The notes beneath the pieces are model-generated. The model was not told the DNA's origin. It saw only the letters and a program-made list of their open reading frames with translations, and ran no database searches. From Candidatus Heimdallarchaeum aukensis (lineage in GTDB: Archaea; Asgardarchaeota; Heimdallarchaeia; Heimdallarchaeales; Heimdallarchaeaceae), in NCBI GenBank assembly GCA_021513695.1, contig CP084166.1, positions 1,888,001 to 1,952,000 of the forward strand: a DNA stretch of 64,000 bases, given 5' to 3'. Shown here one piece after another: positions 50,619 to 53,127 of this stretch; positions within the stretch are counted from its first letter, which is position 1, and each line of letters opens with the position of its first letter. The translations under genes were made by a program, and so were the position numbers.

Positions 50619-50714
50619 AGACCCTGTAGCTCAGCAGGATAGAGCGCTGGCCTTCTAATCTCAGTTGAGAGAAGCTAGTCAGCGGTCGACGGTTCGAATC
50701 CGCCCAGGGTCGCC
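50619..50714 (+). tRNA. tRNA-Arg (anticodon UCU) with a ~19-nt anticodon-loop intron
   Basis: Acceptor gaccctg/cagggtc, G73 and CCA. D-arm gctc-agcaggata-gagc. Anticodon stem ctggc/gtcag (one G-U pair) with loop CTTCTAA split by a ~19-nt insert. T-loop ttcgaat. One A-C mismatch in the T-stem lowers confidence. Confidence 0.55.
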
Positions 50715-50715
50715 A

Positions 50716-53127
50716 TTACATTTTTAGTTTTCCTATTATTGTTATTATTTCCCCCTTTTTGTCTTTGAATACTTCACTCTCTGCTATTTCTCTTAATTTT
50801 TTCAAGTATTTCTTTACCAATTCGTTTTCTTCTGGTAAGTTTACTTTTTTCTTTTGTACGTTGGGCTTTTTTTCTTTTTCTCCCACCAGTTTAACTTTGT
50901 ATTCTCTTTTTTGTTTTCCTTCTTTCACTCTTATCTTGTTTTGATTAGTCACTTCATATTCTTTTTTTGCATTCTCTTTTCTGTCATTCTCTTTTCTGGC
51001 ATTCGAGAACCCTTTTTCTTTTATCAATTCCACGAATTTTTCTCCTACTTTATTCCACACTTGTTGGTATTCCCACATAATCAGTATTATCAGAGCTATA
51101 TCTTCTTCTTTTCCTTTCAGCATATTTACTCCGTTTATAGACATTCCTTGTTTTATTGCTGTTGATAGACCAGCTCTTTTTTTCAGAATAGACAGTTTTC
51201 CCTCACTTAAATTGTACTTTTCTTTTAGATATTTTATCCAAGCTTCTCTTTTCTCTATCATTCTTGAGTTACCAAAGTCTACGAAAAGTTTTCCTTTTTT
51301 ATCTATCTTAAAATACATTGGTTCGTGCAACAGAACAGGGCTAAAGTTCTTTATATCAACATTTTTCATCAATTCGTTTAATAAATTGAATTTGCAAGTT
51401 ATCAGTGGGCTTTTTCTGTTCTCGCTTACTCTTAAAAGATCTCCCCTTTCGTTTTCTAGTATAACAAACGTGTCTTTTGATATATTTCTTTTTTCGGTTA
51501 TCTTATGTCCTATCCAATTGCCATCTATAGTTCCTACTTTAAATTTGAAAAATTCTGTAACTTTTTTTGCTATTGAAGAATTATTGGCTAATATATTTTC
51601 TATTTCTTCTAAAGAAAGACAGGTAAAATCCACATTTTCTATTTTCTTTATTATTTCTTTGAAGATTTGCTCTGTAAAACTTTTAATATTGTTAATTGTT
51701 TCAATATTTTTACTTTCAGAAATTTTTGTTATTAAAGAGAAACGTTCATTTGTTGGCACTAAATTAAGAACAATTTCGTCGTAAGTTCTAATTGCGTATC
51801 TAGAAGCCCATTTTTCTAAATAAGAGTAATAGTAAAACAGCTCATCTTTGCACCCAATAAATTCTAAACGGTGTTTTGTTTCGCAGCTGCTTAAAACTTC
51901 AAAATCCTTGAATAGCCCCTCTTTTGTAATAATATTATAAAGGACGTCCTGAATCTTGATGATTGTCTCTATAAAACTATATTTATTTTCTAGGTTATAA
52001 ACAAATTTTCTCTTTTTCAGTCTCGTGAGAAGAAGATTATCTATTTTTTTGAAAATATTTTTATTTTCATTTTTTTCTTCAAATGATGGAATCTCAATAA
52101 AATCAAGGTTAATTCTTGGTTGAAGATCAGTTGCTTCAATTCTCACTATAGAGTTATTCTCACTCACTAGATCTATATAATTGACTATATCGTTTGTAAC
52201 TACTAAATATCCTTGAAGGTTTTTTGTTGCTTCAAATGTCCAACCATTTTCAAGTAAAGAAATAAGTTGATGTTGTTTTATTGCTGCATTTAAGATAAGA
52301 TTTATTGTATCAAGATCTAAACCACTTTTTATTAGCGCTTCTTTTAGATCTCCGTTTTTTTCTTTTCTTAGGAAATCTAAGCCAATATCGTGTAGAGAAC
52401 TTCTTCTTTTTCTTATTAACATTCTTACTAGTTCTTTTTTCTCTTTCACTGCCTCATCTAGACTACCTATTTCAGAGTTTATTTTTTCAAAGATTTTAGA
52501 TTTACGTCTGAAATATACGTTATTTGAACCATTAAACTTCAAGTTTATCGTTTTAATTATATATTTCCCTGAAGCATCTCTTGCCAGCAGTAACTGATCA
52601 AATCCATTATTTTTCCTCTTTCCAAATTTACCAAAACATAGAGTCTCTTCTGCTGTTCCTATCAACTCAACAACATATTTTGTTGTTAATGTGCTTAAAA
52701 TATAAATTAACTGAAATCTCTCAACATAAGCTCGTGGATCATTAACAAAAATTACTTCTTCTTTTATTCCTGCTAAAAATAAGATGATTCTAATAAAAGC
52801 TTCTATTTCAATCTCATTAATTGTTCTAAAAAAGTGCTTGTACTTCTTTTCAAATTCCTTTTTTCCTACTTTGCTATAAATTGAACTTTCTATTTCCTTT
52901 ATTATTTTATTTATAAAAATCATAAAGAATAATTTAAGAGATTCTAACTCCAGTCTAGTAATTGAATCCACTCTTAATTTACTTATTTTCTTTAAGTTAT
53001 TTCTTTCTAAATCCAGTTCTTGTTGTTCTTTGAGGAGATGAAATAATTCTGTAATAGTAGAGCAACGCAAAAGATTCCAGATATTTAAATTTGCATTTTT
53101 ATAAACAATTTTTTTCATTATATGCAA
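50716..53127 (-). CDS. Large orphan protein (803 aa) with a Lys/Glu-rich C-terminal tail
   Basis: Long uninterrupted ORF with protein-like composition and no motif I can assign. It ends 2 nt from the tRNA-Arg 3' end, on the opposite strand. Confidence 0.4.
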   Translation of the reverse strand: MHIMKKIVYKNANLNIWNLLRCSTITELFHLLKEQQELDLERNNLKKISKLRVDSITRLELESLKLFFMIFINKIIKEIESSIYSKVGKKEFEKKYKHFFRTINEIEIEAFIRIILFLAGIKEEVIFVNDPRAYVERFQLIYILSTLTTKYVVELIGTAEETLCFGKFGKRKNNGFDQLLLARDASGKYIIKTINLKFNGSNNVYFRRKSKIFEKINSEIGSLDEAVKEKKELVRMLIRKRRSSLHDIGLDFLRKEKNGDLKEALIKSGLDLDTINLILNAAIKQHQLISLLENGWTFEATKNLQGYLVVTNDIVNYIDLVSENNSIVRIEATDLQPRINLDFIEIPSFEEKNENKNIFKKIDNLLLTRLKKRKFVYNLENKYSFIETIIKIQDVLYNIITKEGLFKDFEVLSSCETKHRLEFIGCKDELFYYYSYLEKWASRYAIRTYDEIVLNLVPTNERFSLITKISESKNIETINNIKSFTEQIFKEIIKKIENVDFTCLSLEEIENILANNSSIAKKVTEFFKFKVGTIDGNWIGHKITEKRNISKDTFVILENERGDLLRVSENRKSPLITCKFNLLNELMKNVDIKNFSPVLLHEPMYFKIDKKGKLFVDFGNSRMIEKREAWIKYLKEKYNLSEGKLSILKKRAGLSTAIKQGMSINGVNMLKGKEEDIALIILIMWEYQQVWNKVGEKFVELIKEKGFSNARKENDRKENAKKEYEVTNQNKIRVKEGKQKREYKVKLVGEKEKKPNVQKKKVNLPEENELVKKYLKKLREIAESEVFKDKKGEIITIIGKLKM

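Follow-up and report, generated by a model that had tools for sequence, protein, structure and literature searches.

A gene beside the tRNA-Arg(UCU) integration hotspot of Candidatus Heimdallarchaeum aukensis is probably a chromosomal member of a small Heimdall-restricted protein family

Does a large open reading frame (ORF) that runs up against the 3' end of a tRNA gene belong to an integrated element or to the chromosome? The question is raised by a locus of the Asgard archaeon Candidatus Heimdallarchaeum aukensis, within a stretch of 64,000 nucleotides (contig CP084166.1, positions 1,888,001 to 1,952,000; the whole stretch is called the window below). An ORF of about 800 codons converges there on an intron-containing tRNA-Arg(UCU) gene. 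The original prediction took its product for an orphan protein and for possible cargo of an integrated, perhaps decayed, element, and named a novel lineage-specific protein as the alternative. We use X803 as a working name for the 800-aa protein, which is deposited as UJG39919.1 (K9W45_08685, "hypothetical protein"). The reading that we favour, with a probability of roughly 0.6, is that X803 is an intact chromosomal gene in the conserved 3' flank of tRNA-Arg(UCU) and not element cargo, and that its product belongs to a protein family; that this product is nuclease-like and probably non-catalytic is a suggestion of low confidence.

First, we focus on gene order. In a blastn comparison with the chromosome of H. 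endolithica (L001; L001 and L002 both represent H. endolithica PR6), the window is continuous from 63119 down to 50197 at ~89-91% identity, and the sole interruption is a 1.85-kb insertion in L001. The order RPA, STT3, SDR, Roadblock, PolD small subunit (DP1), small ORF, X803 and tRNA is the same by tblastn in L001 and L002 and in the metagenomic Heimdallarchaeum contigs L003 and L004. It has also been assigned to L015, a further metagenomic Heimdallarchaeum contig, in which the junction of X803 and the tRNA was seen; L003, L004 and L015 are endolithica-type strains. In L001, L003, L004 and L015 the same tRNA abuts the orthologous ORF. The original prediction had correctly placed X803 between a homing-endonuclease and rRNA-repeat region, here the LAGLIDADG ORF and a repeat of the 16S 3' end, and the gene for the PolD small subunit. 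The proposal of integrated or decayed element cargo is not upheld by this comparison, as both neighbours of X803, the tRNA and DP1, are retained in H. endolithica and three metagenomic contigs, all of one genus; conserved synteny with the PolD small subunit gene is what the original prediction had itself named as refuting the proposal. Nor do relatives differ in having the gene: X803 is present in all five Heimdallarchaeum loci sampled, with no presence/absence polymorphism among them.

The mobile DNA of this locus has been described. HeimM2 is an 8-kb mobile element between the 16S rRNA gene and tRNA-Arg of H. aukensis, and the 44-kb HeimV2 is "integrated at the same site" in H. endolithica; X803 is not attributed to any element in that study (Wu et al., 2022, Nat Microbiol, PMC8813620). 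The leucine-rich repeat (LRR) and LAGLIDADG genes of the window are the published HeimM2 genes, in the same genome, at the same tRNA and in the same neighbourhood. Unlike them, X803 lies across the tRNA from the 16S gene, on the opposite (3') side and in DNA common to both species; gene order puts the element boundary at 50197, beyond the tRNA. Beyond that position the similarity between the window and L001 consists by blastn of short 16S-trailer repeats only, and L003 and L015 past the tRNA are 98-99% identical to the HeimV2 side of L001, unlike the window. The tRNA-Arg gene is a boundary: the variable, element-occupied DNA is on its 5' side, and X803 stands in the species-conserved flank on its 3' side. 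Since HeimM2 and HeimV2 occupy the 5' side, X803 is not cargo of the element at this tRNA. The idea that the tRNA serves as an integration site was right with regard to the hotspot, which HeimM2 and HeimV2 both use, but not with regard to the side. The mobile-element biology of the locus is already published and X803 is outside it; the finding as posed matters little and does not directly touch any open question of long standing.

Among the integrative elements of archaea that target tRNA genes by means of an integrase are the SSV-type and pNOB8-type tyrosine-recombinase elements. X803 resembles such elements in that it abuts a tRNA 3' end, is without database matches and lies near other mobile DNA. 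It differs from them in that an integrase, a duplicated piece of the tRNA, presence/absence among strains and a shift in composition are all lacking in the window. Pfam detected no recombinase domain in X803, in the small ORF next to it or in any other ORF from the 16S gene to DP1, in line with the earlier observation that no integrase is visible nearby; searches of X803 against PHROGs and PADLOC were likewise negative. The original prediction had proposed to look for a repeated tRNA 3' half; within the window, 32-nt and 19-nt probes at up to three mismatches matched nothing but the tRNA itself, and a repeat scan of 40-56 kb contained no tRNA-derived repeat. The GC content over X803 (27-31%) shows no anomaly against that of the window (~30%), and no relative of X803 was found on IMG/VR viral contigs.

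These data also bear on an older event. X803, perhaps together with the neighbouring 103-aa membrane ORF, might be the last remnant of an element that inserted at the tRNA-Arg 3' end in the ancestor of the genus and has lost its integrase and att repeat. Its stop codon is separated by 0-3 nt from the tRNA, precisely where the DNA of an element integrated into a tRNA gene would start, and tRNA-Arg(UCU) is a proven hotspot (Wu et al., 2022, PMC8813620). Furthermore, X803 is dispensable and under relaxed constraint compared with its neighbours (see below). Two observations weigh against the chromosomal reading in the same direction. The synteny comes from a single genus (89-92% aa identity), which leaves room for an insertion of X803 in the genus ancestor. 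The distant homologues of X803 adjoin neither DP1 nor a tRNA and stand in unrelated neighbourhoods, from which it follows that the gene was relocated at some point; its position between tRNA-Arg and DP1 is specific to the genus Heimdallarchaeum. Against a remnant speak the negative results for an integrase, an att-like repeat and a compositional signal in the window, the uniform presence of the gene in the five loci and the absence of the family from viral contigs. Elsewhere, moreover, the family is inherited stably and vertically between fumarase genes, with orthologues that are 47-87% identical. On balance we consider an old remnant unlikely and retain X803 as a chromosomal gene in the conserved flank of the tRNA.

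The convergence of a large ORF on an intron-containing tRNA-Arg(UCU), as originally described, is borne out by ARAGORN, Rfam and the ORF list. In a cloverleaf-like fold, CUUCUAA (UCU) forms the anticodon loop, with the intron after it; the gene has been annotated as ArgTCT (Wu et al., 2022, PMC8813620). The described length of 803 aa holds when TTG at 53127 is taken as the start (50716..53127, minus strand). An ATG at 53118 (MKKIVYK) is more likely, to which the TTG would add three residues, and the resulting 800-aa product is 100% identical to UJG39919.1. The described 2-nt gap between the genes has to be corrected: the X803 stop codon directly abuts the encoded CCA of the tRNA, giving 0 nt when CCA is counted and 3 nt from the discriminator base. 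The protein has an isoelectric point of 9.4, contains 13.9% Lys and is without a clear membrane segment. Consistent with the initial reading of the sequence, it has no family match in Pfam, NCBIfam, PADLOC, PHROGs or a PDB sequence search, and it ends in a long Lys/Glu-rich tail, with 44-54% charged residues over positions 701-800. This tail is specific to the version of the genus Heimdallarchaeum and aligns only loosely with other family members; a 30-nt indel between the species falls within the tail region.

On the X803 strand, the first T-run past the stop codon (CTTATTTTTC; T-run at 50611-50620, within 50611-50640, minus strand) is located just beyond the antisense tRNA. Speculatively, the X803 transcript may cross the whole tRNA-Arg gene in antisense before termination. 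A scan for bacterial-type promoters and terminators was uninformative for an archaeon.

The next question is whether X803 is an orphan. A word-indexed homology search returned close orthologues only (89-99% identity), also when the mixed alignment A2 was used as query; Lys/Glu-rich words probably dominated the selection of candidates. When 1.84 billion cluster representatives were searched exhaustively with HMMER, four distant homologues emerged (P0004-P0007, E 1.7e-7 to 2.7e-4), which are colinear with the greater part of X803 (20-25% identity); the best match (E 1.7e-7) spans residues 171-716. All of them derive from metagenome-assembled genomes (MAGs) of Heimdallarchaeota or Heimdallarchaeaceae. 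A scan of genome collections gave ten family loci, all from Heimdallarchaeota, and nine additional members of a subfamily of 906 aa came from another search. HHpred and structure prediction had been suggested at the outset. In a profile-profile comparison, hhalign connects the genus profile with the 906-aa subfamily at 97.7% probability over residues 87-318. Judged by sequence similarity, X803 is not a true orphan, given its distant colinear homologues, and it represents a previously undescribed, small family that is confined to Heimdall-group Asgard archaea. The alternative of a novel lineage-specific protein stands in the form of this Heimdall-only family, but the label of an orphan does not. 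A "hypothetical protein" from the clade of Asgard archaea that is nearest to eukaryotes is hereby placed in a small, clade-restricted family.

The stand-alone proteins of the family span 725-945 aa, and four forms can be distinguished. The first is the Heimdallarchaeum form of 800-805 aa beside tRNA-Arg and DP1. The second is an orthologue group of ~906 aa with 47-87% mutual identity, which is linked to fumarase genes. A third form, of 725 aa, is found in another context (L007). In the fourth form, the family module of ~800 residues is the C-terminal part of a giant ORF, which measures 2,924 aa in L006 and at least 4,047 aa in L008. In several Heimdallarchaeota species, the ~906-aa genes are situated between the genes for fumarase beta (Fumerase_C) and alpha (Fumerase) on the same strand, with Sir2 and an XPB-like helicase/DUF790 (Bax1-like) gene pair upstream. 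Both fumarase flanks are present in at least L010-L012 (e.g., L010 8541-13111), and one flank in L009, L013 and L014. This placement is conserved. The MAG 18H4_34 carries both a giant and a fumarase-linked copy, and hence paralogy exists in the family. The useful results are that the family recurs, both at the C-terminal end of giant proteins and as a conserved gene flanked by those for the fumarase subunits, and that it has a nuclease-like motif which can be tested.

Genomic context was also searched for hints of function. Guilt by association was rejected, as the neighbours of the distant homologues are housekeeping or unrelated genes (fumarase, Sir2, XPB-like helicase with DUF790, P-type ATPase, PAC2 and zinc-ribbon proteins). 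A functional link of X803 to the tRNA was rejected as well, because the distant homologues never adjoin a tRNA. The giant ORFs of L006 and L008 share 40% identity along ~3,000 aa, and no Pfam domain was found in either. Giant proteins of Asgard archaea are known from aloposons, where they are called Otus and Ephialtes (Wu et al., 2022, PMC8813620). The X803 module resembles them in forming the C-terminus of two such large ORFs in two Heimdallarchaeota MAGs. In contrast to aloposons, no aloposon-like neighbours were seen around the L006 and L008 ORFs, and the last 365 aa of the giant protein of HeimV2, the sole part compared, have no similarity to the family or to these two giants. On the evidence at hand, a link to the aloposon giant proteins was rejected.

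Several positions are conserved throughout the family and might indicate what the proteins do. They comprise E104, E133-x-F135, G172-F173-D174, a strand ending in (E/N)192-x-K194, G246-x-x-F249..K252, N273..I280-K-Q-x-Q-L-I-S-L288, L418-E419, Y446, D532-G533, P600 and W627. Blocks encountered across the family are GFD, G(L/Y)(D/N)F..K, IKQxQLISL, LE(T/F), Y446, P600 and W627. The catalytic signature of PD-(D/E)xK nucleases combines E (helix 1), D (start of strand 2) and (D/E)xK (strand 3). Distant family members read AExF...GFDD...VEMK, with ELK, EQK or ENK as variants of the last part, and X803 reads E133...D174...N192-L-K194, with the second acid missing. HQxW and PDG blocks, which are conserved elsewhere in the family, are altered in the Heimdallarchaeum proteins.

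Structure models were built from a 14-sequence alignment. The predicted local distance difference test (pLDDT) score is poor for X803 (49.7) and moderate for the homologue P0006 (64.9), and the best-predicted part of both models is the block of residues 246-288. The motif region has low pLDDT and is predicted as a helix-strand-strand-strand scaffold. Foldseek searches with both models gave nothing at E <= 0.001, and a search of the isolated N-terminal domain against PDB and Pfam gave only chance-level, non-nuclease matches, such as YycE (E 0.019). Pfam, NCBIfam, PADLOC and PDB profile searches with the whole proteins and the isolated domain yielded no nuclease match, and PADLOC no convincing match for any family member apart from one chance-level match to BrxB (E 0.01). 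Unlike PD-(D/E)xK nucleases such as HamA of the Hachiman system (PDB 8vxy_A), X803 has NxK in place of ExK, and its ~600 further residues resemble nothing known, without a profile match or significant Foldseek match. The motif pattern and the modelled scaffold would fit a PD-(D/E)xK nuclease-like, nucleic-acid-directed N-terminal domain in the X803 family, an assignment that is our best guess but that we regard as doubtful.

If the assignment were correct, a conserved core, helical and rich in beta structure, would come after the nuclease-like N-terminal region. The Heimdallarchaeum copy would have had its catalytic acid replaced (ExK to N192-L-K194), lost HQxW and PDG and gained the basic Lys/Glu-rich tail. 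Because the catalytic acid and other invariant residues are lost and a basic tail is gained, X803 is, as far as sequence can tell, less likely to be an active nuclease than a protein without catalysis that binds nucleic acids or has an accessory role; if the ancestral module was catalytic, the Heimdallarchaeum copy is probably non-catalytic. X803 might instead be an active effector, i.e., a nuclease or a conflict or defence module that represents the C-terminal end of a giant protein as a stand-alone gene and is catalytic through a variant D...NxK. The losses in the genus copy argue against such an effector, as do the chance-level BrxB match as the only PADLOC result, the lack of conserved defence genes nearby, the non-significant fold matches and the persistence of disrupted alleles in several populations (see below). 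There is little chance, in our view, that X803 is an active effector. Equally improbable is a broader scenario in which the family is a Heimdall-exclusive nuclease-fold module, used alone and as the effector end of giant proteins, and belongs to an unrecognised Asgard system of DNA transaction or conflict. The further step in this scenario, that the copy at the tRNA-Arg hotspot is a catalytically degenerate derivative of the module, we likewise hold to be quite improbable.

At least four independent strains or assemblies (the window, L003, L004 and L015) carry an uninterrupted X803 of 800-805 codons, at 89-90% aa identity. The ratio of nonsynonymous to synonymous substitution rates (dN/dS) between the window and the H. 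endolithica-type alleles is 0.23-0.26, compared with about 0-0.12 for DP1, STT3, SDR and Roadblock. X803 is a real gene, which is constrained but loosely.

Natural disruptions of X803 have occurred. In H. endolithica PR6 (L001/L002) the orthologue is split by an insertion sequence (IS) of ~1.85 kb (L001 ~11635-13490), of which no copy is found in the window. Its sole ORF encodes a TnpB protein of 483 aa (Cas12f1-like_TNB, phrog_506). The IS has no obvious target-site duplication, and both of its ends hold TTTACGTA-like sequence. The products of disrupted alleles are truncated proteins of 551 aa (P0002, P0003 and P0012) and a C-terminal fragment (P0011). The combination of a 551-aa truncation and a separate C-terminal fragment is also found in several MAGs that are ~99% identical to the window allele. 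Because alleles of both species are naturally split by the TnpB IS, X803 is dispensable and not essential.

The sequence around the IS site suggests how the disrupted allele came to be present in both species. Over a tract of ~1.2 kb by the IS site (~52600-51400), L001 is 96-100% identical to the window and 85.5-96% identical to the intact L003. Outside of the tract, identity is 97-100% between L001 and L003 and ~82-95% between either of them and the window. The dS of X803 (0.08-0.21) is low compared with that of the neighbouring genes (0.54-0.68) because the ~1.2-kb tract of L001 matches the H. aukensis window. This mosaic pattern suggests that inter-species homologous recombination moved the IS-bearing X803 allele. 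Natural knock-out alleles thereby appear to have become common to two species, which illustrates gene flow in Heimdallarchaeum.

The same disruptions could be taken as a sign that X803 is decaying in this genus, has no function and is turning into a pseudogene. H. endolithica PR6 and several aukensis-like MAGs have the IS in the same position of the gene, dN/dS of X803 is 3-8 times that of neighbouring genes and family-invariant residues have been lost. However, a frame of 800-805 codons stays open in the independent assemblies named above, and dN/dS is well below 1. Decay to a pseudogene is to our minds quite unlikely.

The variable side of the locus provides information on the target of HeimM2. 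The 3' end of the 16S gene and ~120 nt of its trailer are directly repeated (42511-42649 and 49160-49294; ~135 nt, 87-96% identity). The two copies are 6,649 bp apart and bracket the part of HeimM2 with the LRR gene in an attL/attR-like manner, and the LAGLIDADG ORF is outside the second copy. A 25-nt segment of the leader (40879-40903) shows 96% complementarity to either copy of the trailer, so that a 16S processing stem has likely been duplicated. Part of the 16S 3' end recurs in inverted orientation at 42718-42769. This arrangement suggests that HeimM2 targets the 16S 3' end or trailer and not the tRNA. The coordinates of all features are compiled in Table 1.

Table 1. Features of the X803 locus and giant relatives of X803; positions refer to the window unless a locus label is given.
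Feature	Position	Strand	Evidence or remarks
X803 coding sequence	50716..53118	-	stop codon TAA (complement at 50716-50718); orthologues at 89-92% identity; dN/dS 0.23-0.26
tRNA-Arg(UCU), anticodon-loop intron, encoded CCA	50620..50715	+	ARAGORN 50620-50715; Rfam 50620-50712, 51.5 bits
N-terminal motif region, residues 96-215	52474..52833	-	E133...G172-F173-D174...N192-L-K194; putative degenerate PD-(D/E)xK-like domain
Most conserved family block, residues 246-288	52255..52383	-	GLDFLRK..NGD...INxILxAAIKQHQLISL; near-invariant columns in alignments A4 and A6
IS insertion site, codons 545-546	51483..51485		empty in window; blastn break, junction sequences
Lys/Glu-rich basic tail, residues 701-800	50719..51018	-	charged fraction 0.44-0.54; K+R 0.28-0.34
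103-aa hydrophobic small ORF	53207-53518	+	between X803 and PolD small subunit; weak DUF6007 match (E 0.0047)
PolD small subunit (DP1)	53619-55169		neighbour of X803 on the side away from the tRNA
423-bp stretch 5' of the tRNA, common to window and H. endolithica	50197..50619		blastn vs L001, L003, L015; synteny stops at 50197
HeimM2 variable DNA, 16S gene to tRNA-Arg (context, outside X803)	42511..50196	+	Rfam, Pfam, repeat scan, PMC8813620
16S rRNA gene	41054-42531		Rfam SSU; sole 16S in window
LRR gene of HeimM2	45346-48861		Pfam
LAGLIDADG ORF of HeimM2	49497-50117		Pfam
Giant ORF with C-terminal family module	L006 166-8940	+	2,924 aa; family hidden Markov model E 5e-94
Giant ORF with C-terminal family module	L008 23-12166	+	at least 4,047 aa, start possibly further upstream than the locus reaches; family hidden Markov model E 2e-61

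The small ORF between X803 and DP1 is kept in all Heimdallarchaeum loci at 92-95% aa identity with a dN/dS of 0.27 and probably encodes a real small membrane protein. Rfam gave no 23S or 5S match in the window, and the rRNA genes are therefore unlinked here. A 113-nt tRNA at 23036-23148 (plus strand; Rfam, 56.3 bits), which ARAGORN did not report, is presumably another intron-containing tRNA. The LRR gene of HeimM2 contains ~25 tandem units of 66 nt (22 aa) at 47165-48842 with 60-100% identity, which fit the 'repeat peptide-encoding gene' reported to be CRISPR-targeted (Wu et al., 2022, PMC8813620).

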